Of a stretch of 64,000 bases of DNA, positions 5,053 through 62,600 are shown piece after piece. Position numbers and translations under genes: made by a program. Each line of letters opens with the position of its first letter. Position 1 is the first letter of the stretch. This DNA comes from Minisyncoccota bacterium (GTDB taxonomy: Bacteria; Patescibacteriota; Minisyncoccia; Phycocordibacterales; JAQTLZ01), in assembly GCA_028714635.1 (NCBI GenBank), contig JAQTLZ010000002.1, positions 121,841 to 185,840 on the forward strand. Direction: 5' to 3'. The notes under the pieces were generated by a model. The model had not been told where the DNA came from, did not search any database, and saw only the letters and a list, made by a program, of their open reading frames with translations.

Positions 5053-6720
5053 ATGACTCAAGCAGAAGCGCTGAAAATTTTAAAAACGGGAGCAAATATT
5101 TTTCTCACGGGAGAGCCAGGGAGTGGCAAGACGCATACTATAAATGAATATACGCGCTATTTGCGTCAATGCGGGATTGAGCCCGCTATTACCGCTTCGA
5201 CAGGCATTGCCGCGACCCATATCGGAGGAATGACCATTCATTCGTGGAGCGGGATTGGAATTCGGAAATTTCTCAATGGATATGATCTGGATAAAATTGC
5301 GACCAGCGAATATGTGGCAAAGAGGGTCCGCAAAGCCAAAGTGCTGGTGATAGACGAAGTCTCGATGCTTTCTCCGGAAACTCTCTCGATGGTTGACGCG
5401 GTGTGTCGGGAAGTGAAAGGGAATACTGACGCGTTCGGAGGAATGCAAGTGATTTTTGTCGGAGATTTTTTCCAGCTTCCGCCGGTTGTGAAAGCAGATG
5501 TGGAATCTGAAAGCCAGTTATTTGAAGAAGAAGCTCCTCCTCGCTTTGCATATGGTTCGCCTTCGTGGAGAAACGCGAAAGTGCTTACCTGCTATTTGAG
5601 CGAGCAGTACCGCCAGGATGATAGTGATTTTCTCTCGCTTCTCTCTGCGATTCGGCAAAATACTTTCGGCGACGCGCATAAAGAACATCTTGAAGCGAGA
5701 AAGATTGGAGAGAAGAAAATTTCAAAAGATGTGCCTCGGCTTTTTTCTCATAATGCGAATGTTGATCTTTTGAATGACCAGATGCTCGGAGCACTCTCTG
5801 AAGAACCGCATGTATATCTCATGACCTCGAGTGGGAAACCCTTTTTAATTGAGGCGTTAAAAAAGGGATGTCTCTCTCCCGAAAAACTTTCACTGAAAAT
5901 CGGCGCATCGGTGATGTTTACCAAAAATAATCCCAAAGAAGGATTTGTAAATGGAACACTCGGTACTGTTTCCGGATTTGAGTCGAGTTCAAATTTTCCT
6001 ATTGTACAACTTCGAAATGGAAAAAAGATCGTGGTAACTCCGCTCGAATGGTCCGTGGAAGAAAATGGAAAAGTGCGAGCGCAAATTTCACAGCTTCCTC
6101 TTCGTCTTGCATGGGCGATTACGGTGCATAAAAGCCAAGGGATGAGCCTGGACGAGGCGGTGATGGATCTTTCGCAGGTGTTTGAATACGGACAAGGATA
6201 TGTGGCCCTTTCCCGCGTGCGCCGACTTTCAGGATTGCATCTTCTCGGTTGGAATGCAAAAACATTTCAGGTGCATCCGGAAGTGCTCTCGAAAGATGAG
6301 TCATTTCGAATTGCGTCGGATGAGGCGGCAGAAATTTTCGGGAAAATTTCTGCCGCCGAGCTCGACAAAATGCACGACAATTTTGTGAAAATATCTGGAG
6401 GGAACAGGCCAAAGCCAAAGATCGGTAGCTCGGAAGTGAAAGGTGACCCCAGTAGCGAAGCTATGCTCGCTACGGGGCAAGGAAAGAAAACGCTCGAAAA
6501 AATAAGAGAAAAACATCCGAATGCCTATCGTAAATGGGATGAAGCCCAAGATAAACAACTCAAAGATTTATTTGCAGAAAAGAAATCAATCCCTGATCTT
6601 ATGAAATTGCTCGGAAGGAAAAAGGGTGCAATTCAGATGCGTCTTTTGAAATTCGGACTTATCGAGGATGATGGTTTTTCTTTAGCCTTTCAGAAGAAAA
6701 AAGCAAAAAAGAATGGATAA
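5053..6720 (+). CDS. PIF1/RecD-like SF1 DNA helicase with a C-terminal HTH-like tail
   Basis: 555 aa. Walker A GEPGSGKT, VLVIDEVSM, FVGDFFQLPPV, and TVHKSQG near the C-terminal core. Confidence 0.85.
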   Translation: MTQAEALKILKTGANIFLTGEPGSGKTHTINEYTRYLRQCGIEPAITASTGIAATHIGGMTIHSWSGIGIRKFLNGYDLDKIATSEYVAKRVRKAKVLVIDEVSMLSPETLSMVDAVCREVKGNTDAFGGMQVIFVGDFFQLPPVVKADVESESQLFEEEAPPRFAYGSPSWRNAKVLTCYLSEQYRQDDSDFLSLLSAIRQNTFGDAHKEHLEARKIGEKKISKDVPRLFSHNANVDLLNDQMLGALSEEPHVYLMTSSGKPFLIEALKKGCLSPEKLSLKIGASVMFTKNNPKEGFVNGTLGTVSGFESSSNFPIVQLRNGKKIVVTPLEWSVEENGKVRAQISQLPLRLAWAITVHKSQGMSLDEAVMDLSQVFEYGQGYVALSRVRRLSGLHLLGWNAKTFQVHPEVLSKDESFRIASDEAAEIFGKISAAELDKMHDNFVKISGGNRPKPKIGSSEVKGDPSSEAMLATGQGKKTLEKIREKHPNAYRKWDEAQDKQLKDLFAEKKSIPDLMKLLGRKKGAIQMRLLKFGLIEDDGFSLAFQKKKAKKNG

Positions 6721-7771
6721 AGCGCTTATTCAAAGATTGGAAAAAGCAATTTCAGAAAAAACATTTCCCGGATGCGTCTTGGGAATTGTTTCTCGTGATG
6801 GCAAAAGGAGCATTTTTCCAGTTGGGAATTTTACTTATGAAAAAGATTCTCCAAAAGTTACAGAAAACACGATATATGATCTGGCTTCAATTACGAAATC
6901 AATCCCAACTTCTTGTGTTCTTCTGAAACTCCTTGAAAAAGGGAAGGTGAATATCGAGGATAAAGTTACGGATTTCATTCCCGAATTCGGAAATTTTCCT
7001 GAAAAAAAAGAAGTTACAATCAAAAATCTTCTCACCTATACATTGGAGCTTCAAGTTCCTGGACTTTCGTCGCTTAAAGATAAGACTTCGGAAGAAATTG
7101 TTGCGGAAGTCGTGAATGCACCTCTCAAGTCTCGGCCCGGTTCAAGATTTTTCTACAACAACGCAACAGCGCTTCTCATCGGTTTTGTCATCCAGAAAAT
7201 TATAAAAGAACCGCTCGATATCTATGCTGAAAGGGAATTTTTTGCACCGCTCGGTATGAGTCGGACGACATTCCATCCGGAGCGATTTCCGAAAATGGAA
7301 ATCGCTCCAACAGAAATAGACGACTGGCGGGAGAGAGTAATTCAAGGTGAAGTTCATGATGAAAGCACCTTCACGCTCCAGAAAAAATATTTTTTTGGCA
7401 TTGCCGGAGCTTTTTCTACGGTTCCCGATTTTCTCAATTTTCAAGAGATGCTTTTGAATGGGGGAGTCAAAAACGGAAAAAGATATTTCTCTGAAAATAT
7501 GATTCAAAAAATGCATACCAACATGATGCCGGACGCGAAAGGTGAGCCAGTAGGCCTCGGCTGGAATATTTATAATCCTCTGTATATGGGCACCAAAACA
7601 AGCAAAGAAGTATTCGGCAAAACTGGTTTTACCGGCACTCTTGTTCTGACCGATCCAGTGAAAGGTGTTGGATTTACACTTCTTTCAAACAGAACTTTTC
7701 CAAAACGCCCAAAAGATTCAAATCTCATAAACGCCGTCAGAGGCGATATTGCAGACATAATTTTTTCATAA
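6713..7771 (+). CDS. serine hydrolase, beta-lactamase/transpeptidase-like family
   Basis: 352 aa. SxxK motif (ASITKS) and YxN motif (FYNNAT). Overlaps the helicase stop by 8 nt. Confidence 0.8.
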   Translation: MDKALIQRLEKAISEKTFPGCVLGIVSRDGKRSIFPVGNFTYEKDSPKVTENTIYDLASITKSIPTSCVLLKLLEKGKVNIEDKVTDFIPEFGNFPEKKEVTIKNLLTYTLELQVPGLSSLKDKTSEEIVAEVVNAPLKSRPGSRFFYNNATALLIGFVIQKIIKEPLDIYAEREFFAPLGMSRTTFHPERFPKMEIAPTEIDDWRERVIQGEVHDESTFTLQKKYFFGIAGAFSTVPDFLNFQEMLLNGGVKNGKRYFSENMIQKMHTNMMPDAKGEPVGLGWNIYNPLYMGTKTSKEVFGKTGFTGTLVLTDPVKGVGFTLLSNRTFPKRPKDSNLINAVRGDIADIIFS

Positions 7772-7872
7772 AAAAACAGCTGAAACTAAACTGTTATCTT
7801 GTCGTGTTATACTAAGGGCCGTTCTGTCCTTTTTGCTGTTTGGCCTCGGAATCTCTCTTGAAAGGAGGGGTT

Positions 7873-8958
7873 GTGAAGAATAAAAGTGTCACACACCCTT
7901 CGGAAAGGGTGGTTTTGAAGCGTGTCGCTTCTGTTGTGCTTCATGTTTACGCTCTCATCATGCTTATTGCGGTGGGGCTTAGCATGCAAGCAGTGCTTTC
8001 CGCTGTTTCAGCGTATCTTTTCATAAGATGCGTTATCGTCATCGTCCAGTTCGAGCGTGAAATAAGAAGAACTGACGAGGGCAAGGAGCGCAAGCATTTG
8101 AAAAAAGGAGACCGGGCAAAGCTCGCTCCCATTAACTGGGTGCGCAGTATCGGTTTCTTTAGCGTACACGTCGTCGGAATTGCAGGGCCTTTTGTGGTTG
8201 GCTGGAGTTGGTGGGCGACAGGCCTTGCGGTCTTTCTCTACTACCTCCGGATGTTTTTCATCACCGGTTTTTACCATCGGTATTTTAGCCACAAAAGTTT
8301 CAAGTCATCTCGTCGATTCGTTTGTATTATGGCGCTCTGCGGGGCAAGCGCTCTTCAGAGGTCCGCCACTTGGTGGGCAGCGGTGCATCGATGGCATCAT
8401 GCTCATTCGGATCAAGATGAGTCAGACAGGCACTCTCCAGTCGTTTGGAATATATTTGAGACGCATTTCGGCTGGCTCAACAGAAAGGGCGCAAAAATAT
8501 TCAAGCCTCTTTCTGATGAGTTCATGCAGGACCCAGTCTTTGTGAAAAGTCAGAAGTATCCATGGGTGTATCTCCCGGCCGTCATTATGGCCCTGGGGTG
8601 TTACATCTTGGGCGTGGTCCTTTCACACTGGTTCTATGATGTGAGCGGTGGGCAATTGCTTATCGCGTTCTTCACAAGCACGACAGCTCTCTATCACGGC
8701 ACAGCCTTTGTGAACTCTATCACGCACATGATGGGCGAACGGTCTCATGATACGAAGGACAACAGCGGAGATGTGTGGTGGCTCGTACTCTTCGTTCTCG
8801 GAGAGTGGAAGCATAATAAGCATCATCACGATCCGAGTGCCGCAAAAGAGAGTGAATGCGATCCGACCTATTGGGGGCTCCTTGTCCTCGAAAGGCTGGG
8901 GCTCATTTGGGATTTGATCCCGGAAAAGGAGGAAAGAGATAAGTTAAGGGCTGCTTGA
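7873..8958 (+). CDS. membrane fatty-acid (acyl-CoA/acyl-lipid delta-9 type) desaturase, high-GC cassette
   Basis: Three His boxes: HRYFSH, HRWHHAHSD and HNKHHH. GTG at 7873 is preceded by AGGAGGGG (7863-7870). The track start at 7840 is less likely. Confidence 0.8.
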   Translation: MKNKSVTHPSERVVLKRVASVVLHVYALIMLIAVGLSMQAVLSAVSAYLFIRCVIVIVQFEREIRRTDEGKERKHLKKGDRAKLAPINWVRSIGFFSVHVVGIAGPFVVGWSWWATGLAVFLYYLRMFFITGFYHRYFSHKSFKSSRRFVCIMALCGASALQRSATWWAAVHRWHHAHSDQDESDRHSPVVWNIFETHFGWLNRKGAKIFKPLSDEFMQDPVFVKSQKYPWVYLPAVIMALGCYILGVVLSHWFYDVSGGQLLIAFFTSTTALYHGTAFVNSITHMMGERSHDTKDNSGDVWWLVLFVLGEWKHNKHHHDPSAAKESECDPTYWGLLVLERLGLIWDLIPEKEERDKLRAA

Positions 8959-8975
8959 AAAAGCGCCCTTTTTTC
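8946..8975 (+). terminator. rho-independent terminator overlapping the desaturase stop
   Basis: AAGGGCTGC..GCGCCCTT stem followed by TTTTTT (8969-8974). Confidence 0.6.
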
Positions 8976-8996
8976 ATTCTCTTTATGATATTCTAA

Positions 8997-9632
8997 ATGC
9001 ATATTTTCATTACTATGCCGGAGAAGAAAAAGAAAAAATCGAAACATATCCACGTCAAAGATGTCTATTTTGCGGATATGGGCGGGAAGATGAAAAAGGG
9101 ATTTGGACGCTCTCTCGTTAGGAAAATTTTTCATCGGCCTGTTTTTAAGCGCGAAATTCATCACAAGACTTTCTCGGCAGATTTTAGCGCTACAAAACTT
9201 CGTTGGTACTCCAATCTTTTGAATATGTTCTACTTGAAGCTCGATGGTACCGCTTCCTGTTTTTTTACCGATGAAGGAACGCTCGTGATTATTTTCATGG
9301 TTTGGGGAGATCCCGATGCGGAAGAATTTTTCGAAATGCCGGAGATGAAAGGTGAATTTGTGGAGGATAGGGAAGCGACCCAGAAGAAAAAGAAAAAGAG
9401 TTTGAAGGTGGATAAGGATTCAGTGAAGGAGGAAGTGAAAGATGACGGGTATCACCTTCAATATGAAGAGACGTATAAAGATCACGGAAAAGAAGTGAGA
9501 ATGTTTGAGCATGTGATTTATTCCGGAATTGATAAGCTGGTTTTCCGGGCGATTGTCCCACCGAAAGTTTTGCCGGAGACTCTTGATGATATTTTGGCGA
9601 TTGCAAAGTCGCTTAGAATAAAGGTAACTTAA
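8997..9632 (+). CDS. hypothetical Lys-rich protein
   Basis: 211 aa with no recognisable motif. TATGAT at 8984-8989 lies 7 nt before the ATG (leaderless layout). Confidence 0.6.
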   Translation: MHIFITMPEKKKKKSKHIHVKDVYFADMGGKMKKGFGRSLVRKIFHRPVFKREIHHKTFSADFSATKLRWYSNLLNMFYLKLDGTASCFFTDEGTLVIIFMVWGDPDAEEFFEMPEMKGEFVEDREATQKKKKKSLKVDKDSVKEEVKDDGYHLQYEETYKDHGKEVRMFEHVIYSGIDKLVFRAIVPPKVLPETLDDILAIAKSLRIKVT

Positions 9633-9646
9633 TAAAAGACAGAGAA

Positions 9647-9689
9647 GCCCTGCCCGACGAAGTCGGGCAGGGCTGTTGCGTTTTTTTTT
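9647..9689 (+). terminator. rho-independent terminator
   Basis: Perfect 12-bp stem GCCCTGCCCGAC/GTCGGGCAGGGC with a GAA loop, then a T-run at 9681-9689. Confidence 0.8.
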
Positions 9690-9770: not shown

Positions 9771-10526
9771 ATGTCGCCTGTGAATAGTGATAGGGCATAC
9801 GTGCCAATTTACTTGGCACTGGACAAGAAGGACTGGGAGCAAGCATCTCCGCTCCTTCGCACGCTCGGCAATCGCATTGATGGAGTCAAGATCCATCGCA
9901 TCTGGGATGAGCTTGGCGCGAAATCTGTTTCGATGATTCGCGACCTTGGTGTCCCTGATGCCTGGGTTGATCTCAAGCTTTTTGATACGCCGGACACCGC
10001 GGCCGAACGCGCCGAACAGGTCAAGAAAGCTGGCGCCAAAATTTTGACCGTACACGCCAAGGGCGAAGTCGAAATGATGATGGCTGCGGTCAAGAACGGT
10101 CCGGAACTGGTTCTCGCCATCACGGAACTTACTTCGCTTACGGCGGAGCAGGTGGAAGTGGGCGGTGGCCTCACGCCTAAATCGGCCGTGCTTCATTGGG
10201 CGCGTGTTGCCAAGCTGGGGACTGTTGGTGGAGTCGTTACTTCCGCACTGGAAGTGGGCATGCTCTCGAAACGACCGGAACTCAAGGGTTTCGTTCTGGC
10301 TGTCCCGGGCACGCGCTCTGCGGGCGTGGACGTCAACGACCAGAAGCGTTCGGATACGCCTTACAACGCGGTGCTTGCGGGCGCAGGACTTATCGTCGCT
10401 GGTCGGCAGGTGACTGCCGCGGAAGACCCCGTTACCGCTATCGAAGCGCTTCGGGAAGAAGTCAACAAGGCGAGTGATGAGCGGCTTCGTCTCTTGCAGG
10501 AGATGGGAAAGAAGAAAGTCGCGTAA
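9771..10526 (+). CDS. pyrF: orotidine 5'-phosphate decarboxylase
   Basis: 251 aa. LALD, VDLKLFDTPDT (DxKxxD), ITELTS, VPGTR..NDQKR..TP and VAGRQVTAAEDP align with type-1 PyrF. GGGAGGG Shine-Dalgarno site lies 8 nt upstream. About 67% GC in a spot count. Confidence 0.85.
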   Translation: MSPVNSDRAYVPIYLALDKKDWEQASPLLRTLGNRIDGVKIHRIWDELGAKSVSMIRDLGVPDAWVDLKLFDTPDTAAERAEQVKKAGAKILTVHAKGEVEMMMAAVKNGPELVLAITELTSLTAEQVEVGGGLTPKSAVLHWARVAKLGTVGGVVTSALEVGMLSKRPELKGFVLAVPGTRSAGVDVNDQKRSDTPYNAVLAGAGLIVAGRQVTAAEDPVTAIEALREEVNKASDERLRLLQEMGKKKVA

Positions 10527-10539
10527 CAACCCGGCTCAC

Positions 10540-10570
10540 CCCGCCCATCGGCATTGTGCCGACGGGCGGG
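10540..10570 (+). promoter_or_regulatory. GC-rich intercistronic stem-loop between pyrF and the PRTase gene
   Basis: 14-position stem CCCGCCCATCGGCA/TGCCGACGGGCGGG (one mismatch) with a TTG loop and no U-tract. The track start at 10556 lies inside it. Confidence 0.55.
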
Positions 10571-10606
10571 AAAGCCGAAGACAGAAGACAAAGAAAGGAG
10601 AGTACC

Positions 10607-11431
10607 TTGCATAAGGACCAAATAAGTCAGACGGCGACGTCTCTGATCCATTTCGATCGAGACACGCCTGTGCTGGAAATCCTCCGTCTCTGTGGTGGAG
10701 TCTACCTCTGCCCTAAGGATGCGGCGGGGAAACGTGTCGGCCCGCTCGTTGGGTACGCTGGAAAAAGCCCGCGCCTGAAGACTAATCTCGTGGGGGATAT
10801 CTACGCGAATTTCTCCACGGCCGAGCGCTACTGGCACGTCATGGCTGAGTTCGCGCGGCGTCTCGTCGAGAACCCGAGATTCCAGGAGATTCTTCCGAGA
10901 CTGGACGGTCTCTGTGGGATGCCCATGGGCGGGATTACATATTCGTCGCACCTTGCGCGAGCATGTGATCGTACGGGGATCTTTCTGGAAAAGCTGGTCA
11001 CCGCGGTGGCGAACCCGATCGAGGGGACGAAGGAAGAGTCCATTCTGGTGGCCGGTCGCTGCGAGATTATCCTTGGAGCCAACTACGCGATCGTCGAGGA
11101 CGTTACCAATAACTTTTCCACCACGCTGAAAGCGATCGGTCTGATCGAAAAAGCTGGCGGAAAGGTCATTGCCATCTGCAGTATCCTGAACCGTTCACCG
11201 AAGCATACGTCTGACTTTCCGCTTCCGGACGGTCGGGAAATTCCGGTCATCTCGGCTTACCAAGAGCCGTTCCCGGAATTTGAGACGGATGACGAGGCCG
11301 TTGCGGCGGACATTGCCGCTGGAAACGTGATCTGGAAGCCAAAGGAAAATTGGCCCAAGCTCATGACCGCGATGGATGCTGCGCGTGAGACGGCGCTAGC
11401 GAATCAGTCGGACAAGCCGTCCGGTTCGTAA
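10607..11431 (+). CDS. type I phosphoribosyltransferase (orotate-PRTase-like)
   Basis: PRPP-binding loop YAIVEDVTNNFST. TTG at 10607 lies 6 nt after AAAGGAGAG. Substrate is not determinable by eye. Confidence 0.6.
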   Translation: MHKDQISQTATSLIHFDRDTPVLEILRLCGGVYLCPKDAAGKRVGPLVGYAGKSPRLKTNLVGDIYANFSTAERYWHVMAEFARRLVENPRFQEILPRLDGLCGMPMGGITYSSHLARACDRTGIFLEKLVTAVANPIEGTKEESILVAGRCEIILGANYAIVEDVTNNFSTTLKAIGLIEKAGGKVIAICSILNRSPKHTSDFPLPDGREIPVISAYQEPFPEFETDDEAVAADIAAGNVIWKPKENWPKLMTAMDAARETALANQSDKPSGS

Positions 11432-13301: not shown

Positions 13302-13889
13302 ATGCACACGCTTCTTGTTTTTGTTCTCCAGTGGAGTTACCTCGGTATTTTTGTCGTTGTCTTTGCCGAATCAGGATTTCTTCTGGGATTTTTTCTTCCT
13401 GGTGACTCACTTCTTTTTACCGCAGGACTTCTCGCTTCGCAGGGAATTTTTAATATTTGGATTCTCGTTCCTCTGATTGTCATCGGCGCAATTCTCGGAG
13501 ACAGTTTCGGTTATTACATGGGCAACAAATTAGGCCCGAAAATTTTCGTGCGGAAAGATTCATTTTTTTTCAAACAAGAGAATGTTGAAAAGACAAATCA
13601 TTTTTATGAAAAATATGGAGTGAAGACGATCATTCTCGCGCGATTCGTGCCGATTGTTCGCACTTTCGCTCCCATCTTTGCTGGTGTGGGTGGAATGAAA
13701 TACGCGACATTTCTTTCTTATAACGTGATTGGAGGATTTCTTTGGGGTGCTGGAGTGACTCTTGCCGGCTTTTTTCTCGGGCGAGCCTTCCCAGGAATTG
13801 AGCACTATCTCACTTATATTATTATCGCGATTATCCTCCTCTCTTTTGTTCCAATTCTCTTAGAGTATTTCAAGAAGCGAACAGCTTGA
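13302..13889 (+). CDS. DedA/SNARE-associated family membrane protein
   Basis: 195 aa. VFAESGFLLGFFLPGDSLLFTAG signature and multiple TM helices. Confidence 0.85.
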   Translation: MHTLLVFVLQWSYLGIFVVVFAESGFLLGFFLPGDSLLFTAGLLASQGIFNIWILVPLIVIGAILGDSFGYYMGNKLGPKIFVRKDSFFFKQENVEKTNHFYEKYGVKTIILARFVPIVRTFAPIFAGVGGMKYATFLSYNVIGGFLWGAGVTLAGFFLGRAFPGIEHYLTYIIIAIILLSFVPILLEYFKKRTA

Positions 13890-14166: not shown

Positions 14167-14235
14167 TTTCCTCGCCATTCCAGGAGCCTCACCGCTTCTG
14201 GATTTTTGTTTTTAGCGTTATACTGGTATAAATTT

Positions 14236-14937
14236 ATGACCACTTTCGGCCTCATCCTTCTTTGTTTTTTTCTTTTTGTCGGCTACATTTCTATTTATCG
14301 AAGAAAAGATCTGTTTACTCCTACGCAGGATCGTATATTTTTCACGCATCTCGTTATCATCGTCTTATTTATTGCAGTGAGTATTGTGAATGCCTTTCAT
14401 CTCGTCGATTCGGTGAATGTGGGAGTCCACGATTTTCTGCAAACGTTTTGGAATTCGAGCTTTGATACGCCGATGATAATGGCTAGTTTCCTCGCCAGTC
14501 CTGAAACGCTTGCGATCCTTTCCTGCCTTCTCCTTATCGTCCTTCACTTTAGGCACGAGCGTACACTTTTCTTTTTCACTTTCATTTCGCTAGTAGGTGC
14601 CTTGGTTTCTAATCTCATTTTGAAAGATCTTTTCAAATTGGTTCGCCCTGCAGTTTCTCTCATTCCTGAAACTTTTTGGAGTTTTCCAAGCGGACATTCG
14701 ACGATGATCGTCGTGTTTCTTTCTTGTTTGTATTACTGCTGGACTCGGATGTATCCGAATGTGGGGAAATGGAAAAAGCAGGCCGCGCTCTTTGCCGTTT
14801 TTCTCCTTTCTCTCCTCGTTGGCTTCAGCAGGCTTTATCTCGGTGTTCATTGGCTCTCTGACGTCGTCGCCGGCTTTCTTCTCGGGCTTTTCTGGGTGAC
14901 TTTTGCATATTTGAGTCCTAGGCCAAAGTCTGTATAA
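14236..14937 (+). CDS. PAP2-family lipid phosphatase (undecaprenyl-diphosphatase/PA phosphatase-like)
   Basis: KLVRP, SFPSGHS and SRLYLGVHWLSDV motifs. ATG at 14236 is in frame with the track ORF starting at 14206. Confidence 0.8.
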   Translation: MTTFGLILLCFFLFVGYISIYRRKDLFTPTQDRIFFTHLVIIVLFIAVSIVNAFHLVDSVNVGVHDFLQTFWNSSFDTPMIMASFLASPETLAILSCLLLIVLHFRHERTLFFFTFISLVGALVSNLILKDLFKLVRPAVSLIPETFWSFPSGHSTMIVVFLSCLYYCWTRMYPNVGKWKKQAALFAVFLLSLLVGFSRLYLGVHWLSDVVAGFLLGLFWVTFAYLSPRPKSV

Positions 14938-34513: not shown

Positions 34514-37500
34514 ATGTCCGAGAAAGAAACAGACAAAAAAGTGAAAAGCCCTTTAGCTCTCCGTGAAGAGGAGATTCTTCGATTTTGGCAGGAAAAGAAA
34601 ATTTTTGAGAAGACAGAAGAGGCAGGCAGAGGGCAGAAGGAATTTGTTTTCTATGAGGGACCGCCGACCGCGAATGGTCGGCCGGGAATCCATCATCTCG
34701 AAGCTCGGGCATTTAAAGACATCATTCCTCGCTATAAAACGATGCGAGGATATCACGTGCGCAGAAAAGGCGGCTGGGATACGCATGGGCTTCCGGTTGA
34801 GCTTGAAGTTGAGAAAAAACTCGGTCTCAAATCAAAAAAAGAGATCGAACAGTACGGCATCGCTAGATTTAACGCGGAGTGCAAAGAAAGTGTTTGGAAA
34901 TACGTGGACGAATGGAAACAATTTACCGAGCGAATGGGGTATTGGATCGATCTGAAAAATCCCTACATCACTTACGAGCCTTCGTATATGGAATCGCTTT
35001 GGAATGTGATGAAGACGGTGGATGAGAAAAAACTTCTCTACAAAGATTATCGAATTGTACCGTGGTGTCCGCGTTGTGGAACTGCGCTGTCGAGTCATGA
35101 ACTTGCCCAAGGCTATGCAGAAGTAAAAGATATTTCGGTTTACGCGAAATTTGAGCTCGTCGATGAGCCGGGTACATTTGTGTTGGCGTGGACGACGACA
35201 CCTTGGACATTGCCGGGGAATGTTGCTCTCGCAGTTGGGCCGAAAATCAAATATGTGAAAGTAAAGATTGGGAATGAGTTCTTTATTTTGGCGAAAGAGA
35301 GGCTTTCAATTCTGAAAGACAAAGCGCACGAAATGGTGGAGGAGTTTGATGCCGGAAAGATTATCGGGAAATCCTACAAACCGCTTTTCAATGCTTTTTC
35401 TGACCCAAAAATCCTAAACAAAGAAAATGCGTGGAAAATTTATGGAGCGGATTTTGTCACAACAACTGACGGAACCGGAGTGGTGCATATCGCGCCCATG
35501 TATGGAGCAGACGATTTCGCACTTGCGACGAAAGTAAATTTGCCGAAATATCATACGGTTACTCCAGCAGGCGCTTTTAATGCAGATAAAAATCTTCCGG
35601 GAAACATTTCAGGCATTTCTATTTCTTCCGAAGAGGATCGTAAAAAAGGGAACATTGAGATCCTTAAATATCTTCAGGAAAAAAATCTCTATTTCGATAA
35701 AGAATCTCATGCGCATGAATATCCTTTTTGTTGGCGCTGTAAAACCCCGCTTATCTATTACGCCCGCGATTCCTGGTATATCAAAATGTCTTCTCTTCGC
35801 GACAAATTGGTAAAAGAAAATGAAAAGATAAATTGGGAGCCAGACTATATCAAAGAGGGACGTTTCGGAGAATGGCTTCGCGAAGTGAAAGATTGGGCGA
35901 TCTCCCGCGAGCGCTATTGGGGCACACCTTTGCCTGTGTGGGAGTGCCAAAAATGCAAAAAACGCGAAGTGATCGGCTCAATCGAGGCTCTCAAAGAAAA
36001 AACATCTCGAAAAAATAAATACTTTCTTGTCCGTCATGGGGAAGCGGAATCGAATTTGACTGGGAAGGTAAGCTGTCGGCCAGATGATCCTTACAAGCTT
36101 ACTGACAAGGGAAGGGAACAAGTCGAGACCACAGCTAAGGCCCTTAAAAAGAAAAAAATCGATGTCATTTTTGTTTCTGATTACATTCGGACAAAAGAGA
36201 CAGCAGAAATTATCCGAGAAGCTTTGAATATTTCTCCTGACAAAGTCATCATCGATGCCCGGCTTCGCGAAGATAATATCGGAGTGTACCAAGGCAAGAC
36301 CTGGAAAGAATATCAGGATGAATATCCGTATCTCGAGCGATTCGTAAAAACTCCAGAAGGCGGAGAGACGCTTGCGGAAGTAAGAAAAAGATCTGGAGAT
36401 TTTCTGTTTGATATTGATTCTCGCTTTGCCGGAAAAAATATTCTGATTGTAAGCCATGATACCCCGATGACTCTGATTCTGGCAGTGGCGCAAGGCTGGA
36501 CGAAGGAAAGAATTCTGCTCGGTCACGAGAGAAAAACTCCCGAACCTTTCTATTTTCTGCCAGCAGAGCTTCGAGAGATTTCTTTTTCTCCCTATCCTCA
36601 CAATGATGACTATGAACTCGATCTTCACCGCCCGTTTATCGATGAAATAAAATTTCCTTGCGACTGTGGCCTGCCCCCTGGCCGGGCAGGCGGCCAGGGC
36701 GGAGAGATGAAACGAGTGAATGAAGTAATGGATGTCTGGTTTGATTCAGGCGCAATGCCGTTCGCCGAGGACCACTATCCATTCGAGAATAAAAAGTGGG
36801 TGGAGAAAGAAGGATTTCCGGCAGACTATATTTCTGAAGCGATTGATCAGACTCGCGGATGGTTTTATACGCTTCATGCTGTGGGAGTGCTTATGGGTTT
36901 CGGCAAGGCGTATAAAAATGTTATTTGTCTCGGGCATATTTTGGATAAGGACGGACAAAAAATGTCCAAATCAAAAGGTAACACGGTAAATCCGTGGGAG
37001 ATGATGGACAAGTATGGCGCTGATCCCCTTCGCTTTTGGATGTATGGCGTCAATCAGCCGGGCGAATCAAAAAACTTCGACGAGAAAACAGTTGATGAGG
37101 GAGTGAAAAAAGTATTCAATTTGCTTTTGAACGTTCTTTCTTTTTACGAGATGAATTCTCCCCAAGAGTTCGAAGTAAGCAAGCCGGGCGCAAGCGAGAA
37201 TGTCTTGGATAGATGGATCGAAGCGAAATTTGCCGAGCTCCTCGCTACAGTAGAAACCGGACTCGATGCGTATCGAGTATTTGAGCCTGCCCGCGCAATT
37301 CGCGATTTTATGGCTGACCTTTCGCAGTGGTATTTGAGGCGTTCTCGTGATCGATTTAAAAGTGATGACGTCTTAGATAGGACGAATGCAGTCCAAACAA
37401 CGCGCACGGTCCTTCTTCAATTGGCGAAACTTATGGCTCCGTTCACTCCGTTTGTTGCGGAAGATGTCTATCGAAGACTCAGGGGCGAGAAGGAGAGTGT

Positions 37501-37984
37501 GCATATGGAAAGCTGGCCAAAGAGAGAAAAAATAGATTCCAAACTTCTGAAAGAAATGGAAGCGGTGAGAAATCTTGTGTCACTCGGGCTCGAAGCTCGC
37601 TCGAAAGCGCTTATCAAGGTCCGCCAGCCGCTCGCGAAGATAACAGTGAAGGCCGAGAAAATGTCTCCAGAACTCGTCGGACTTATGAAAGATGAATTGA
37701 ATGTGAAGGAAGTGATGTTTGATGCGAAACTTTCTTCGAATGTTCTTCTCGATATTGTCATAACTCCTGCGTTAAAAGAAGAAGGAGAATATCGAGAACT
37801 TCTGCGAGTTATCCAAGATTTTAGAAAAGAAAAGAAGCTTCAAGCGAGCGACAAAATTTCGCTTTTTCTGACTGCACCGAAAGAGATCCTGGCAATTGTA
37901 AAAAAATTTGAAACTGAAATAAAAAAGGTTTGCAATGTTACCGGCTTTGAAACGAGGGAAGGCGAGTTTGAGCTTAAGCTGTAA
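34514..37984 (+). CDS. ileS: isoleucine--tRNA ligase with an inserted histidine-phosphatase (PGAM-type) domain
   Basis: 1156 aa. PPTANGRPGIHH (HIGH), KMSKSKGN, and WCPRCGT / CWRCKT zinc knuckles. Insert LVRHGEAESN...LIVSHDTPM at about 36017-36616. A 10-aa GC-rich insert lies at 36671-36700. Confidence 0.9.
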   Translation: MSEKETDKKVKSPLALREEEILRFWQEKKIFEKTEEAGRGQKEFVFYEGPPTANGRPGIHHLEARAFKDIIPRYKTMRGYHVRRKGGWDTHGLPVELEVEKKLGLKSKKEIEQYGIARFNAECKESVWKYVDEWKQFTERMGYWIDLKNPYITYEPSYMESLWNVMKTVDEKKLLYKDYRIVPWCPRCGTALSSHELAQGYAEVKDISVYAKFELVDEPGTFVLAWTTTPWTLPGNVALAVGPKIKYVKVKIGNEFFILAKERLSILKDKAHEMVEEFDAGKIIGKSYKPLFNAFSDPKILNKENAWKIYGADFVTTTDGTGVVHIAPMYGADDFALATKVNLPKYHTVTPAGAFNADKNLPGNISGISISSEEDRKKGNIEILKYLQEKNLYFDKESHAHEYPFCWRCKTPLIYYARDSWYIKMSSLRDKLVKENEKINWEPDYIKEGRFGEWLREVKDWAISRERYWGTPLPVWECQKCKKREVIGSIEALKEKTSRKNKYFLVRHGEAESNLTGKVSCRPDDPYKLTDKGREQVETTAKALKKKKIDVIFVSDYIRTKETAEIIREALNISPDKVIIDARLREDNIGVYQGKTWKEYQDEYPYLERFVKTPEGGETLAEVRKRSGDFLFDIDSRFAGKNILIVSHDTPMTLILAVAQGWTKERILLGHERKTPEPFYFLPAELREISFSPYPHNDDYELDLHRPFIDEIKFPCDCGLPPGRAGGQGGEMKRVNEVMDVWFDSGAMPFAEDHYPFENKKWVEKEGFPADYISEAIDQTRGWFYTLHAVGVLMGFGKAYKNVICLGHILDKDGQKMSKSKGNTVNPWEMMDKYGADPLRFWMYGVNQPGESKNFDEKTVDEGVKKVFNLLLNVLSFYEMNSPQEFEVSKPGASENVLDRWIEAKFAELLATVETGLDAYRVFEPARAIRDFMADLSQWYLRRSRDRFKSDDVLDRTNAVQTTRTVLLQLAKLMAPFTPFVAEDVYRRLRGEKESVHMESWPKREKIDSKLLKEMEAVRNLVSLGLEARSKALIKVRQPLAKITVKAEKMSPELVGLMKDELNVKEVMFDAKLSSNVLLDIVITPALKEEGEYRELLRVIQDFRKEKKLQASDKISLFLTAPKEILAIVKKFETEIKKVCNVTGFETREGEFELKL

Positions 37985-50050: not shown

Positions 50051-50080
50051 AAAACGGCACTCAGACGAGCTGCCGTTTTT
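50051..50080. terminator. bidirectional terminator hairpin
   Basis: AAAACGGCA..TGCCGTTTTT, between convergent rpsR and the CDP-alcohol transferase gene (overlaps the latter's 3' end). Confidence 0.65.
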
Positions 50081-50684
50081 CGATTTCTTCTGCCCATTTT
50101 TCGTAATGTGCTAGGAGAAGTCCGTCTGCCTTTTTATAGTACCAGAATTGACTGTAGAGAGTTAAAACTATTGCTATGACTCCTCCAATCACGCTGGTCC
50201 AGAATGCGGCAGTATGAATGTACTCTGGCGCGGTACTTCGTAGGACACCAACTGCTCCGATGAAAAGGTATTGAAATACTGCTTTCACTTTTCCCGGCAT
50301 GTCAGCATCGAAACTAATTCCGAGCTTCTCCATTCTCCACCTAAGTACCCCTATCTCTACTTCACGCTGCATTATGATTAGCGCAGTAGGTATTACCGGA
50401 AGGGGGTACTCCCAAGAGTAGTCATACAAGAGTTCAGCAGTGAAGATTTTATCCGAAATGGAATCAATCTGACCGCCAGACTTGCACTTTCCTCCCAGGC
50501 GCTTTGCGACTACGCCATCCAGTATGTCGCTCACCACAACTCCGAGCATTACCAGCAACACTTCCTTCCAACCTGCTTTGTGCAGGTTGAGGTAAATCAT
50601 GTAAGGCCCGAAGAAGACGGGCCGAGAGGCTGAGAGCACGAATGCGATCATTACAGCCACTATCCTGCCCGTCTTCCTTAGCAT
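50061..50684 (-). CDS. CDP-alcohol phosphatidyltransferase family protein
   Basis: 207 aa. DGVVAKR..G..IDSISD (DGxxAR..G...D...D), polytopic. GGAG lies 8 nt upstream of the ATG. Confidence 0.75.
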   Translation of the reverse strand: MLRKTGRIVAVMIAFVLSASRPVFFGPYMIYLNLHKAGWKEVLLVMLGVVVSDILDGVVAKRLGGKCKSGGQIDSISDKIFTAELLYDYSWEYPLPVIPTALIIMQREVEIGVLRWRMEKLGISFDADMPGKVKAVFQYLFIGAVGVLRSTAPEYIHTAAFWTSVIGGVIAIVLTLYSQFWYYKKADGLLLAHYEKWAEEIEKRQLV

Positions 50685-59526: not shown

Positions 59527-59685
59527 ATGTGGAAATACTTCGATAAGACCTTTTTTAAGTTTCTGATAGGTTTTTTGGTCATTCTGACCGCCAGTTTTCT
59601 CCTCCTCATTTTCACCAACGCCTATAAGATAAAAATCGAAGCGCAATCCCAATTCGCCAATCCTCCTTTAGTGCAAGATCAATGA
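59527..59685 (+). CDS. small membrane protein (52 aa), hypothetical
   Basis: The ATG at 59527 lies 6 nt after TGGTACACT (59512-59520). One TM helix. ATGA overlap with the next gene. Confidence 0.5.
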   Translation: MWKYFDKTFFKFLIGFLVILTASFLLLIFTNAYKIKIEAQSQFANPPLVQDQ

Positions 59686-62600
59686 GACGGCGAGGGTTAC
59701 AAATTTTTCTCCTCATTTTTTCTTCTCTCTGCATTTTCAATATAAACTCTGTAAAAGCGGAGACCGTCATCACCGATTCAGAAATTTCTGTCGATACCAC
59801 ATGGACAAAAGTAAATAGCCCCTATATTATTTCAGGCGATTTGATTATCGATTCAGGCGTGACTCTCACAATTGAACCAGGAGTTATTGTGAAAATGGAA
59901 AACAGCGCTTTGTATGTAGATGGGAAAATCGTCGCGGAAGGCACTGAAAACGAGAAGATATACTTCACCTCGTTTGCAGACGATTCTCTCGGAGGAGACA
60001 CGAATGGCGACGGTGCTCTCACGACACCATCGGAATTCGATTACGACGGCATCAGGTTGTGGGGAAGCGACCCTGGATCACATTTCTCTCATGCAGTTTT
60101 CCAGTATGCTTCAATAGCTCTCGATTTCGATACCACTACTGCCACACTGGATGCTGTCTCCATCGAGCATGGCAATGGAGGAATCTCTGCCTTTAATGCA
60201 GATATTTCTCTTAAAAATTCTCATCTTTTCGATCTTTCATTTGATGCAGTTGATGGATATGGCGCGAGTAAGATACTCGTTGCTTCAAGCATTATCGAAG
60301 ATCTTCAGGGCTCTGCTTTTGGCATGTATAACGACTCGATGCTCATACTCAAAGACTCGACGATAAAAAATCTTCAAGATGGAACTGGTGTGATCTTATT
60401 CGATTCTTTTGCGGATATTCAAGATTCGACTTTTGAAAATATTACTCGGGATGCGGTGGGTGTCTACAATTCGAAGCTTACTTTCAAGGATTCTTCAGCC
60501 AAAGATAATGATTGGGGTTCTGCAATTTATGCGCAAGGCACAAGCGATGTCACCATTTCAGGAAGTTCATTCGACGGCGGTTTCAATTCGGGCGTTGAAT
60601 TTTATGGAAACAGCTGGAGCGGACAACATTCTTCTTTTTCTGTATCAAACTCGACTTTTCAAAATTATCTTTATGCCGGAATAAGTGCGGGGGATATTGT
60701 TTCCGGGAGTATCGCTTCAAGCACAATTCAGAAAAATTTTATCGGTCTTGATGTGTGGAATATCCCGTTGCTCATAAGCGGAAGTGCAATAAAAGAGAAT
60801 GATCTTCTGGGACTTTGGAATGAATCGGATGAAAAAGTAGTTGATGCAAAAAATAACTGGTGGGGAGATGTAGGAGGCCCGTACGAAGAAGTTGGGAATC
60901 CGCTTGGATTTGGAAATGAGGTAATGGGAGCTGTTAATTACACGCCATGGCTTAGCGAAGATCCATTTTTAGTAATAGAGCCGGAGTGCTGTTCAAGCGT
61001 TGCATTTTTGCCGGGAATCGAGGGAAGTAGGTTGTATAAGCAGGGCCTGATTTTTGAAGACCAGCTTTGGGAGCCGAATTACTATAGCGATGTAGAGGCT
61101 CTTCATTTAGATGCAAATGGAAAAAGCAAAGACCCTTCGGTTTACACAAAGGACGTTATTGATAGTGTAAATATTGCGGGTACAAAAATTTACCGAAGTT
61201 TCATGGATGAGATGGATGGTTTGAAAACCGCAGGCACAATATCAGATTGGGAACCGCTTCCGTATGATTGGCGGCTTTCCGCGGATGATACGGTGGCGAA
61301 TCCTGTGAAGCTCGCAGGCGGGGGTACATATTCGATGGTTGCCCAAATTGAAAATCTGGCGGCAAATTCGAAAACGGGGAAAGTCACGCTCATCGCGCAC
61401 AGTATGGGAGGAATTGTAAGCAAAGCGCTTATCAAAGCACTTGAGGCAAAAGGGGAGGCGGGACTTATCGATAAGTTAATTCTGGTCGCCTCTCCGCAGA
61501 TCGGTACGCCACAGACAATTGGTTCGCTTCTGCACGGATACGGAGAAGAACTTTTCCACGGACTTCTGGCGGGCGCAGCCACAATGCGAACATTTGGCGA
61601 GAATCTTTCCGGAGCGTATCAGCTTTTGCCTTCTGCAGAATATTTTACAAAAGTGTCGGATCCGGTTGTTACATTTGATCCATCAATCGATACCGTTTCA
61701 GATTTCAGACAAAAATATGGAGAAAGTATTTCCACCAAAGCAGGACTTCAGAATTTTCTTCTTGGAGCAGATGGCAGAGCAAAACCATCGGCAGAAGATA
61801 TTACCTTGCCGAATATTTTGAATTCTACAATTCTCACAAATGTAAATACACTTCATGACAATATCGATTCATACCAAATTCCGTCGGACATTGCAGTAAC
61901 GCAAATTGCCGGTTGGGGATTGGATACGATAAAAGGAATTAAATATCAGACGAAAGATGTAACAGTCTGCGCCGATAAAGGAGCCTGTCAGACGAATAAA
62001 GAATTGGACATGCGACCAATCTTTACGGAAGATGGAGATGGGACGGTGGTGGTGCCAAGTGCGGCGAAGTTGAATACGAGTAAATATTTTTTTGATTTTC
62101 CCCTCTATAACTCGCAATTTAATATATCTCTTGAACATAAGAACATTCTCGAGTCTTCTGTAATTCTCGATTTTCTAAAAAACAAAATTATCGAAGCGAC
62201 AAGTTCTGCTGATTTCATTACTTCCACAGAACCAGATCCAGTTGATCTTGGCAAACAGATTCGTCTTTCTGGTCACTCGCCGATTTCACTAGATCTCTAT
62301 GATAGCGACGGTCATCACACGGGCCTTATCTCTATTCCTAATTCAGATTTTAATTACGCAGAAGAACAAATTCCGAATAGTTATTATTTTGAACTTGGCG
62401 ATGGGAAGTATGTAGGATTCCCAGATGATAATTCCACAAATGTAAAAATATCTGGCACTGGTATTGGAACTTTTACCCTCGATATTGAACGAGTGGTAGG
62501 AGGCCAGACAACCACAACTTCTTCATACGCGGATATTCCCGTTTTCCCAACAACGCAAGCCTCTCTTCTCGTATCTGCGACTTCCACCACGCTTTCACTA

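Follow-up and report, generated by a model that had tools for sequence, protein, structure and literature searches.

A Delta9-type membrane di-iron desaturase, probably acquired horizontally, in a genomic slot of a small Pacebacteria clade

The window, that is, the whole 64,000-nucleotide (64-kb) stretch of DNA that was analyzed, carries on its + strand an open reading frame of 372 amino acids (7840-8958). The supported start is the GTG at position 7873, giving a coding sequence (7873-8958) of 361 residues for a Delta9/SCD-type membrane di-iron desaturase; the NCBI protein has the same start and length. Two NCBI entries match it exactly, MDD5068424.1 and MDD5356907.1, both named 'acyl-CoA desaturase [Candidatus Pacebacteria bacterium]', so that an automatic annotation already exists for the protein, hereafter the type A desaturase. 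The Pfam family PF00487 is recognized with 53.4 bits (cut-off 29.7; E = 4.1e-14) over residues 123-333 of the 372-aa frame. As stated in the original prediction, the gene is placed between a beta-lactamase-fold serine hydrolase of 39.9% GC, encoded upstream on the same strand (6713-7771; PF00144, E = 3.5e-47), and a low-GC gene of no family, also on the + strand (9015-9632, start at 8997 or 9015; 205 aa, 40.7% GC). Pfam and NCBIfam gave no sequence-level family match for this 'orphan', and the fold search, on a structure model of moderate confidence (pLDDT 62), assigned it a PsbP/Mog1/LpqN/DcrB-like fold. The protein is soluble, and it differs from the known proteins of that fold in having no sequence-level match to them, a polybasic N-terminus and no signal peptide.

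The three histidine boxes are located in canonical order, HX(3-4)H, HX(2-3)HH and HX(2-3)HH, read here as HRYFSH, HRWHH and HNKHH, on the + strand as the rest of the gene. Box 1, HRYFSH (8275-8292), occupies the invariant columns H135 to H140; in box 2, HRWHHAHSD (8386-8412), H172, H175, H176 and D180 are invariant; and box 3, HNKHHH (8812-8829), stands in the atypical surroundings GEWKHNKHH where the family has GEGWHNNHH. Between the second and third boxes the motif NSITH (8713-8727), which aligns with NSAAH of mouse SCD1, provides the Asn and His ligands of an SCD-type di-iron site, with N281, S282 and H285 invariant among 21 homologs. Every one of the eight box histidines, as well as N281 and H285, falls in an invariant column of the alignment. 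The stretch 7873-8958 is a real gene whose product, a Delta9/SCD-type membrane enzyme, has the complete set of di-iron ligands, and the intact desaturase with HRYFSH, HRWHHAHSD and HNKHHH that had been claimed is borne out both by these motifs and by the Pfam score above cut-off.

The AF2 model of the desaturase (pLDDT 73, pTM 0.70) has the SCD1-like fold, a four-helix membrane stalk with a cytosolic cap. Foldseek retrieved 4zyo, 4ymk and 6wf2 with E values of about 1e-9, probability 1.0 and TM scores of 0.60-0.71 over 282-298 columns, and no fold other than SCD1 below E = 0.7. Mammalian SCD1 (4YMK, 6WF2, 4ZYO) is also the best PDB match by sequence (E = 5e-16), so that it is the only solved relative by both measures. 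The two proteins share the ligand set HX4H, HX2HH, NSxxH and HX2HH; they differ in that identity is only 22-23% and in an 86-residue N-terminal hydrophobic extension present in the window protein only. SCD1 works with cytochrome b5 and acyl-CoA.

The closest sequence relatives are bacterial proteins of about 320 aa annotated as 'acyl-CoA/Delta9 desaturase' (P0002-P0120, L002-L081), a subfamily with an RWFD N-terminal motif that occurs in Proteobacteria, Verrucomicrobia, Planctomycetes, Nitrospira and Gemmatimonadetes and matches type A with E values of about 1e-55 to 1e-60. Core architecture and motifs are common to both, and every one of 100 bootstraps places type A with these proteins; the subfamily, however, is devoid of the N-terminal extension, and its canonical GEGWHNNHH, SRNN and QGFYWWE are altered or deleted in type A. 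Homologs cover just 63-85% of the desaturase query, the uncovered portion in the alignment being the N-terminus. In the extension (aa 1-86; 7873-8130, + strand), a pair of hydrophobic segments (aa 13-61) precedes a charged linker. No homolog of it was found at any locus fetched; against the ortholog locus L162 its DNA is 95-98% identical (dS 0.05). The segment with this high identity spans 7765-8210 and may reflect either a recombination tract or constraint on the nucleotides themselves.

Changes in the core are also numerous. Considering the 61 positions conserved in at least 95% of 211 homologs, type A retains 48 and has changed 13, while the homologs themselves deviate at a median of 0 such positions and never at more than 7. 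Among other changes in type A, GEGW has become GEWK, SRNN has become SGDV and four residues are missing after box 3. The changes concentrate around box 3 and in the segment between the membrane-helix pairs, so that the enzyme could differ in its specificity or in the partner it uses. A stronger reading is that the di-iron enzyme works but has acquired a changed activity: a different regiospecificity, the chemistry of a hydroxylase or other oxidase, or a substrate outside the standard set, such as lysolipids, some other class of lipid or a different acyl carrier. The remodelling of the cytoplasmic cap and the additional membrane hairpin at the N-terminus would then represent neofunctionalisation in a CPR cell. 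The retention of all metal ligands and of the Delta9-typical NSxxH, together with SCD1 being the sole solved fold match, speaks against such a change and has to be set beside the altered columns, nearly all of them common to both orthologs and under purifying selection, their clustering, and the unique extension. The protein likewise falls outside the NCBIfam equivalog NF049918, 'DesA family fatty acid desaturase', with 41.7 bits against a cut-off of 400. CPR proteins generally evolve fast, and for this reason divergence alone is weak evidence for a changed activity, a reading that we consider unlikely even though lysolipids, one of its candidate substrates, are reported to be enriched in CPR (PMC7242380).

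The gene is equipped with expression signals of its own. An extended -10-like box, TGTTATACT (7805-7813, + strand), is a candidate promoter for the desaturase and is identical in L162. The pattern TGNTATAMT has 4 copies in the window versus 2.2 expected, a count that is not significant, and all four sit directly upstream of + strand genes; a sigma-70 scan detected no promoter and no -35/-10 pair. The 5' leader stretch 7850-7872 (+ strand), 100% identical to L162, contains the Shine-Dalgarno GGAGG (7864-7868) 4 nt upstream of the GTG, and this element can pair with an upstream CU-rich anti-SD in a 10-bp stem. The local fold has -10.9 kcal/mol; the entire 101-nt leader is no more structured than its shuffles (z = -0.6). 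A hairpin at 7814-7831 was also considered and dropped, being neither conserved in L162 nor more stable than shuffles. At the other end, an intrinsic-terminator-like hairpin with U run (8946-8976, + strand) overlaps the TGA stop codon (8956-8958). The hairpin proper (8946-8970) reaches -18.9 kcal/mol, a stability that none of 200 shuffles attained (z = -4.08), and in L162 it becomes a perfect 8-bp stem in which a compensatory G-C to U-A change keeps the pairing; it had been missed by a simple terminator scan because of a bulge. The extended -10 box, strong Shine-Dalgarno site and terminator of the original prediction are thus all found and kept in L162, the box as a candidate. With its own TGnTATACT -10 element, a strong Shine-Dalgarno before the GTG and its own terminator hairpin, the desaturase appears to be a monocistronic unit.

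The beta-lactamase-fold gene constitutes the conserved left border of a genomic slot, holding the same position in L162, L163 and L165. On the other side, the PsbP-fold gene adjoins a desaturase in six of the seven lineages with a readable upstream side. An obligatory link between the two genes was rejected, as L171 and L172, more distant members of the orphan family, have HNH-endonuclease-like ORFs upstream and no desaturase; the neighbourhood is frequent, not universal. A new observation is that related Pacebacteria carry desaturases of other subfamilies in the same slot. These types B and C (L163:3480-4400, L165:8853-9899, L167:233-1201 and L168:71-997, on the strand opposite to type A) resemble type A in lying beside the same PsbP-fold gene, in belonging to the same Pfam family and in being each an isolated long branch. 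They differ from it in orientation, in an identity of 30-34% and in having no N-terminal hydrophobic extension. Their NF049918 scores are 60 bits (type B) and 58 bits (type C). Type B belongs to another subfamily; it has named relatives in Nanopelagicales, Microbispora and Phycisphaerales, and its best match lies in surroundings that look actinobacterial.

The gene order around type A is the same in the 195-kb contig, in JAQTSW010000023.1 (99.96% nucleotide identity) and in JAQTSY010000004.1 (89% amino-acid identity); ordinary CPR housekeeping genes flank the desaturase in three independent assemblies. It could be argued that a foreign gene was joined to a CPR contig during assembly or binning, given that the GC content of the desaturase is above that of both flanks; this is hardly credible, as three contigs of 195 kb, 13.5 kb and 100 kb, each assembled separately, contain the gene in their interior and agree in gene order, and the junction regions are conserved between species. 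Relative to the 89%-identical ortholog, dN/dS is 0.083 at a dS of 0.74 (neighbours range from 0.03 to 0.13) and falls to 0.011 over aa 87-140, where His box 1 and the first two membrane helices of the core are located. The desaturase is under purifying selection. Amino-acid divergence amounts to 11% for type A and to 3% for the PsbP-fold neighbour, a rate of evolution about 3.7 times higher in type A.

A functionless or decaying passenger of a horizontal transfer might be expected to show some of the properties seen here, since many conserved positions are altered, the adjoining slots are variable (the pyrF/PRT pair is replaced and HNH-endonuclease-like ORFs fill the slot of L171), and no electron donor lies nearby: ferredoxin, flavodoxin, cytochrome b5 and reductase genes were found neither among the 51 genes of the window nor in the ortholog loci. 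The reading frame, however, is intact in three assemblies, the dN/dS values just given, with their minimum over aa 87-140, are those of a constrained protein, the -10 box, Shine-Dalgarno and terminator are all conserved, and desaturases have been captured repeatedly in this one slot, all of which makes a passenger very improbable.

The composition of the gene was not that of the original prediction, which had placed it in a segment of about 60% GC. The desaturase segment has 49.8% GC, which puts it at the 96th percentile of stretches of equal length, and the coding sequence 50.1% (GC3 0.566), compared with 43.8% for the window. Among the 51 genes of the window, whose mean is 44.4%, its GC has a z of 1.35 and its GC3 a z of 1.72, and its codon-usage distance is ordinary, ranking 22 of 51 (z = -0.06). 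The truly high-GC stretch (57%) is the neighbouring pair of pyrF and phosphoribosyltransferase genes (9771-11431). Composition was hence rejected as evidence of transfer, and it lends little support to a recent one. The description of the segment as a mobile cassette had to be abandoned as well: the flanks of the desaturase hold only short, chance-level repeats, no tRNA lies near it (the sole one found is at 1222-1293), and no integrase or transposase gene surrounds it.

Foreign origin is instead argued from distribution and phylogeny. Among 5.8 billion proteins, close relatives of type A were found in only two or three Pacebacteria MAGs; beyond the Pacebacteria cluster matches drop to 38-46% identity, the next-ranked having 44%. 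The matches with organism names come from Proteobacteria, Verrucomicrobia, Planctomycetes and Vampirovibrio, none of them CPR. The best 80 among the GTDB matches listed are likewise all non-CPR, including Nitrospira and Gemmatimonadales, in a list of at least 600 candidate stretches that does not contain the source genome and leaves room for CPR homologs. A phage origin was discarded, the best viral homologs being at most 33% identical. Among the 218 sequences of the neighbour-joining tree, type A stands on a long branch (median distance to homologs 0.97, versus 0.63 among the homologs), and its sister shifts between bootstraps: the viral outgroup in 38%, the P0051 clade in 24% and Puniceicoccaceae in 25%. 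The phylogeny that had been suggested as a way to the donor lineage therefore gives a non-CPR placement, but with a long branch and no stable sister group it names no donor; all desaturase trees were built by neighbour-joining only.

None of 100 bootstraps recovered the Pacebacteria desaturases as monophyletic, so that two or more independent captures are implied. The split between the A and B subfamilies was obtained in 100 of 100 bootstraps with a quartet support of 100%, and A and B sit with different non-CPR subfamilies. In terms of identity, types A and B share 31%, less than the 40-46% between type A and its non-CPR homologs and less than the 43% between type B and its own. These relationships, and the absence of CPR among the named top matches in the searches with type A and with type B, are difficult to reconcile with an ancestral gene inherited vertically in CPR, in which fast evolution, and inversion in some lineages, would hide the kinship of types A, B and C. 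Such a history would account for the presence of a desaturase in the same slot of six related lineages, for the nearly native composition of type A and for its rate relative to the PsbP-fold neighbour; we nonetheless regard it as most unlikely. Vertical branching within the lineage, together with a matching composition, had been named beforehand as an argument against foreign origin. Desaturases do occur more widely in the lineage, yet they are of non-orthologous types, which strengthens the reading as horizontal acquisition. The sequence comparisons thus support that type A was probably acquired from non-CPR bacteria by a small Pacebacteria clade.

Characterized bacterial Delta9 desaturases include DesA, which acts on phospholipids, and DesB/DesC of P. 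aeruginosa, M. tuberculosis DesA3 with Rv3230c, and cyanobacterial DesC. Acyl-lipid desaturases (DesA, DesC) act on chains already in membrane lipids. DesA, DesB, DesC and DesA3, likened here to the window protein by description only, belong to the same superfamily with the same expected chemistry; the window desaturase has no adjacent gene for a dedicated reductase. Among type A's non-CPR relatives, about half adjoin UfaD-like and UfaO-like genes (FAD amine-oxidase-like and DUF1365, respectively), neighbours that are absent from the Pacebacteria loci. UfaD/UfaO-type enzymes act on pre-existing phospholipid acyl chains (PMC7380195).

The literature agrees with the premise that CPR are generally without de novo lipid synthesis: complete pathways for fatty acids and lipids are lacking, a statement that covers CPR in general, and the machinery by which their membranes would be supplied or remodelled has not been identified (PMC7242380, PMC11665869). 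In line with it, no fab, pls or fadD-type family, and no part of FASII (FabD/F/G/Z/I, ACP) or of PlsX/Y/C, was seen among the 51 genes of the 64-kb window, the sequence covered being the window and loci of up to 20 kb. Since CPR are reported without complete fatty-acid and phospholipid synthesis, the substrate is most likely scavenged acyl chains, and the acyl-lipid mode of DesA and DesC would best suit a cell of this kind. The original prediction had further gathered several genes of the window into a lipid-remodelling toolkit. PAP2, DedA/VTT, CDP-alcohol phosphatidyltransferase and an LCAT-domain protein are all four present; they are, however, spread across the 64 kb, with genes for tRNA synthetases, RecA and FtsK in between. 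In NCBIfam, PAP2 and DedA match best, in every case below cut-off, to undecaprenyl-diphosphate phosphatase and to the DedA/UptA family of undecaprenyl-phosphate transporters, and by these matches the two look more like putative undecaprenyl-phosphate recycling proteins. The toolkit is thus supported in part only.

We propose, with a probability of roughly 0.65, that type A is a functional O2-dependent acyl desaturase of the Delta9 family (SCD/Ole1/DesC-like), horizontally acquired from non-CPR bacteria and kept by purifying selection in a small Pacebacteria clade, where it acts on scavenged chains. In the model, two donor electrons and O2 at the His/Asn-ligated di-iron centre would serve to abstract two hydrogens from a saturated acyl chain, leaving a cis double bond, probably at C9. 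The acyl chains would most likely be scavenged from the host or the environment and might already be esterified in membrane lipids. Their desaturation would let this tiny, host-dependent cell tune a membrane fluidity that it could not set by synthesis. The function would matter to the lineage, the sister Pacebacteria filling the slot with other subfamilies.

The gene bears on the question of how CPR/Patescibacteria acquire their membranes and keep them up, and a literature search found no paper linking Patescibacteria with a fatty-acid desaturase. That many CPR inhabit anoxic habitats counts against an O2-dependent enzyme, and a search of the literature by assembly accession gave no paper on the environment from which these MAGs come. 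A selectively maintained, O2-requiring desaturase and the repeated capture at one locus suggest that at least some Pacebacteria edit acquired acyl chains and that those Pacebacteria live where O2 is available. Type A, with its conserved neighbour, offers a concrete and clonable candidate for tests of lipid remodelling in CPR. A more speculative proposal, which we put forward tentatively, is that in this clade the desaturase works together with the PsbP-fold protein encoded beside it, as a lipid-editing module of two genes. The latter might then be a new kind of desaturase accessory, for example one that presents scavenged (lyso)lipids at the surface of the membrane or docks the electron donor. 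The desaturase would have been swapped at least twice, and probably three times, for xenologs of different bacterial subfamilies, and type A would owe its N-terminal hairpin and remodelled cap to adaptation, either to this partner or to the membrane of a CPR cell. Swapping of this kind would indicate that organisms unable to make fatty acids are strongly selected to desaturate host-derived lipids in situ, with the use of O2.

The open reading frame of the desaturase extends from 7840 to 8958 (+ strand). Its best supported start is the GTG at 7873, located 4 nt downstream of GGAGG (7864-7868), giving a product of 361 amino acids that is present at NCBI as MDD5068424.1 and MDD5356907.1, 'acyl-CoA desaturase [Candidatus Pacebacteria bacterium]'. 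The product matches PF00487 of Pfam with 53.4 bits (cut-off 29.7). In an alignment with 20 homologs, the three His boxes quoted in the original prediction, HRYFSH (8275-8292), HRWHHAHSD (8386-8412) and HNKHHH (8812-8829), all occupy invariant columns, as does an NSITH motif (8713-8727; all on the + strand). In SCD-type enzymes the motif at the NSITH position supplies additional Asn and His ligands. The mammalian stearoyl-CoA desaturases, which are the sole solved relatives, match the enzyme in sequence (E = 5e-16) and resemble its AlphaFold model (pLDDT 73, pTM 0.70) with a Foldseek E of ~1e-9 and TM of 0.60-0.71. The desaturase adds a new, divergent member to a known family, its existence being already on record through automatic annotation. 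Amino acids 1-86 form an extension without counterpart in any homolog, in which a charged linker comes after two hydrophobic segments (aa 13-61). Moreover, 13 of the 61 positions conserved at 95% or more in 211 homologs differ in the desaturase, while the other members depart at no more than 7 (median 0). The motif GEGWHNNHH is modified to GEWKHNKHH and SRNN to SGDV, and four residues are deleted after box 3. Both orthologs, from the window and from a related species, have nearly all of these departures, which may reflect either fast CPR evolution or a cytosolic cap adapted to another donor or substrate.

One gene order surrounds the desaturase in three independent assemblies: the 195-kb contig, JAQTSW010000023.1 (99.96% nucleotide identity to the window), and JAQTSY010000004.1, which carries the ortholog locus L162 of the related species with an 89% identical desaturase. 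The order runs from DUF2914, an unknown gene, a PIF1 helicase and a beta-lactamase-fold gene (6713-7771, +) to the desaturase and an orphan gene for a PsbP-fold protein, followed by pyrF, a DUF1749 hydrolase, DedA, PAP2 and FolD. The remaining genes of the window are typical housekeeping ones (tRNA synthetases, RecA, FtsK, NusG, L11, thyA, folA, glyA, tmk). Between the window and the related species the desaturase has a dN/dS of 0.083 at a dS of 0.74, its neighbours ranging from 0.03 to 0.13. The orphan, better started at 9015 (9015-9632, +; 205 aa), is 97% identical in L162, with a dN/dS of 0.031. By these sequence comparisons, the desaturase is truly part of a CPR genome and appears functional.

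The window and L162 are unevenly similar at the nucleotide level: identity has a peak of 95-98% over ~7765-8210, comprising the upstream intergenic region and the sequence for the N-terminal extension, and a second peak of 91-95% at 8959-9180, on a background of ~75-90%. The dS is 0.05 in desaturase codons 1-86 versus 0.70 and 1.66 in the remainder of the gene, the values for well-conserved neighbours being 0.36-0.81. A search for a repeat copy of the 7765-8210 segment elsewhere found none. The peaks may correspond to a recent recombination tract or to nucleotide-level constraint, two sequences being too few to separate these possibilities.

A foreign origin had been proposed from a GC content of about 60%. 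This value is wrong, the one observation of the original prediction that does not hold; the interpretation built on the observations is supported in part. The desaturase segment has 49.8% GC, versus 43.8% in the window and 39.9% and 40.7% in the flanking genes. Among 51 window genes the desaturase lies just 1.35 sd over the mean GC, ranks third in GC3 (0.566, z = 1.72) and shows ordinary codon usage (rank 22, z = -0.06). The true high-GC island is the neighbouring pair of pyrF (OMP decarboxylase) and a phosphoribosyltransferase gene, at 9771-11431 (57% GC, z ~3 among the 51 genes). At that position the L162 genes are just 31% and 28% identical, despite a neighbourhood of 89-97% identity, and the sister Pacebacteria locus L165 carries an inositol-phosphatase gene, an unknown gene and pyrF; 9771-11431 is a second variable slot directly adjoining that of the desaturase.

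The foreign origin and the CPR context of the gene both hold, on grounds of phylogeny and not of composition. Among 5.8 billion proteins, the close relatives of the desaturase are confined to a Pacebacteria cluster, the next match being 44% identical (E = 2e-60). Matches with a named organism come from Verrucomicrobia, Planctomycetes, Gammaproteobacteria, Steroidobacteraceae and Vampirovibrio, and the best 80 loci among the matches listed in GTDB species genomes are all non-CPR (31-43% identity). Viral homologs do not exceed 33%. The Pacebacteria desaturase forms a long branch (median Kimura distance to homologs 0.97, versus 0.63 between homologs) with an unstable sister group; no donor can be named.

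The chief new result concerns the sister Pacebacteria, where orthologs of the orphan occur in four further contigs (65-79% identity). In L163 and L165/L166 the interval from the beta-lactamase-fold gene to the orphan again contains a PF00487 desaturase. This type B enzyme (L163:3480-4400; L165:8853-9899) is encoded on the - strand, opposite to the window enzyme (type A), with which it shares only 31% identity. Also next to the PsbP-fold gene, in this same slot, L167 has a divergent type B copy (233-1201, -; 52% identical to type B) and L168 a third type, C (71-997, -; 34% identical to type A, 31% to type B). Overall, types B and C are 30-34% identical to the window enzyme. Type B is isolated too: its top outside match is 43% identical, in a genomic context that looks actinobacterial, and its named relatives include Nanopelagicales, Microbispora and Phycisphaerales. 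In a neighbour-joining tree of the six Pacebacteria desaturases and 60 top matches per type, the split of type A, L168 and A-hits from type B and B-hits appeared in 100/100 bootstraps; the Pacebacteria enzymes were monophyletic in none of the 100, and type A grouped with L168 in 4. Quartet support for (A, A-hits versus B, B-hits) was 100%. From this split and the non-monophyly it follows that different desaturase subfamilies have supplied the slot on at least two, and probably three, occasions, which argues for horizontal acquisition together with selection to retain a desaturase. The orphan-desaturase link is not universal: in two more distant loci of the orphan family, L171 and L172, the upstream side has no desaturase and consists of tandem HNH-endonuclease-like ORFs (L171:259-1267; L172:117-633), apparently fragmented and with zinc-finger CxxC motifs.

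The desaturase has its own expression signals, as the original prediction stated. The extended -10-like box TGTTATACT at 7805-7813 is identical in L162. TGNTATAMT occurs four times in the window versus 2.2 expected, and the four copies (5038, 7805, 15817 and 38591) all lie on the + strand, each within ~100 nt on the 5' side of a + strand start codon, a placement that suggests that extended -10 promoters are in use in this genome. At the 3' end, the stop codon falls within a bulged hairpin (8946-8970; -18.9 kcal/mol, z = -4.1) that leads into a U run, and the stem of the hairpin is preserved in L162 by a compensatory G-C to U-A change. A consensus promoter/terminator scan of the window detected neither box nor hairpin. 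A CU-rich stretch (7850-7872), 100% conserved in L162, is able to base-pair with the Shine-Dalgarno sequence, forming a stem of 10 bp (-10.9 kcal/mol). In its 101-nt leader context this stem is statistically not distinct from shuffles; it may be a translational control element. Immediately 3' of the PsbP-fold gene, a strong inverted repeat with 28-nt arms (9631-9689) followed by a T run is probably the terminator of that gene itself. The desaturase appears to be transcribed as a unit of its own, and it does not resemble a mobile cassette: a search of its flanks for repeats, tRNA and mobility genes found none.

CPR in general are reported without complete lipid synthesis (PMC7242380, PMC11665869). 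The premise that this organism cannot make its lipids rests on this general literature; a search for fab, pls and fadD-type families within the 64-kb window found none. Desaturases captured repeatedly at one locus, in a type of organism thought incapable of making its own lipids, are the main interest of the system. The proposed lipid-remodelling toolkit is a weak idea. All four genes exist, DedA/VTT (13302-13889), PAP2 (14206-14937), a PgsA-like CDP-alcohol phosphatidyltransferase (50061-50684, -) and a 1080-aa LCAT-domain protein (59682-62924), but they are dispersed between housekeeping genes. The top NCBIfam matches, all below cut-off, are undecaprenyl-diphosphate phosphatase for PAP2 and the DedA/UptA family for DedA, and therefore both may serve cell-wall lipid-carrier recycling. 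In the orphan-family locus L173, whose upstream side is cut by the contig end, BacA, MscL and PAP2 lie downstream of the orphan-family gene (L173:816-2712). The neighbourhood may serve to recycle lipid carriers instead of remodelling phospholipids. The LCAT-domain protein combines an N-terminus resembling a signal peptide with a right-handed beta-helix and an LCAT/PGAP1-type alpha/beta-hydrolase domain. As a candidate secreted (phospho)lipase or acyltransferase, it could be a source of host lipids for the cell.

Among the 80 non-CPR loci with relatives of type A (L002-L081; examples at L003:3936-5180, L053:4423-5214 and L053:422-1177), the desaturase adjoins, commonly on its downstream side, an FAD amine-oxidase-like gene in 41 and a DUF1365 gene in 35. 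Such loci resemble the UfaD/UfaO furan-fatty-acid operon; UfaO has the DUF1365 domain, and the pathway works on phospholipid acyl chains already made (PMC7380195). By this association, the window desaturase might tentatively be assigned to membrane-bound acyl chains, which would be the most sensible mode where acyl-ACP and acyl-CoA are not supplied in the cell. A DUF1295 gene lies within the 3-kb flanks in 10 of the 80 loci. Elsewhere in the window, a class I aminoacyl-tRNA synthetase of 1156 aa (34514-37984; PF00133 and Anticodon_1) has its catalytic domain interrupted by an insertion, a histidine-phosphatase domain that is itself complete (PF00300, residues 504-666, E = 8e-37).
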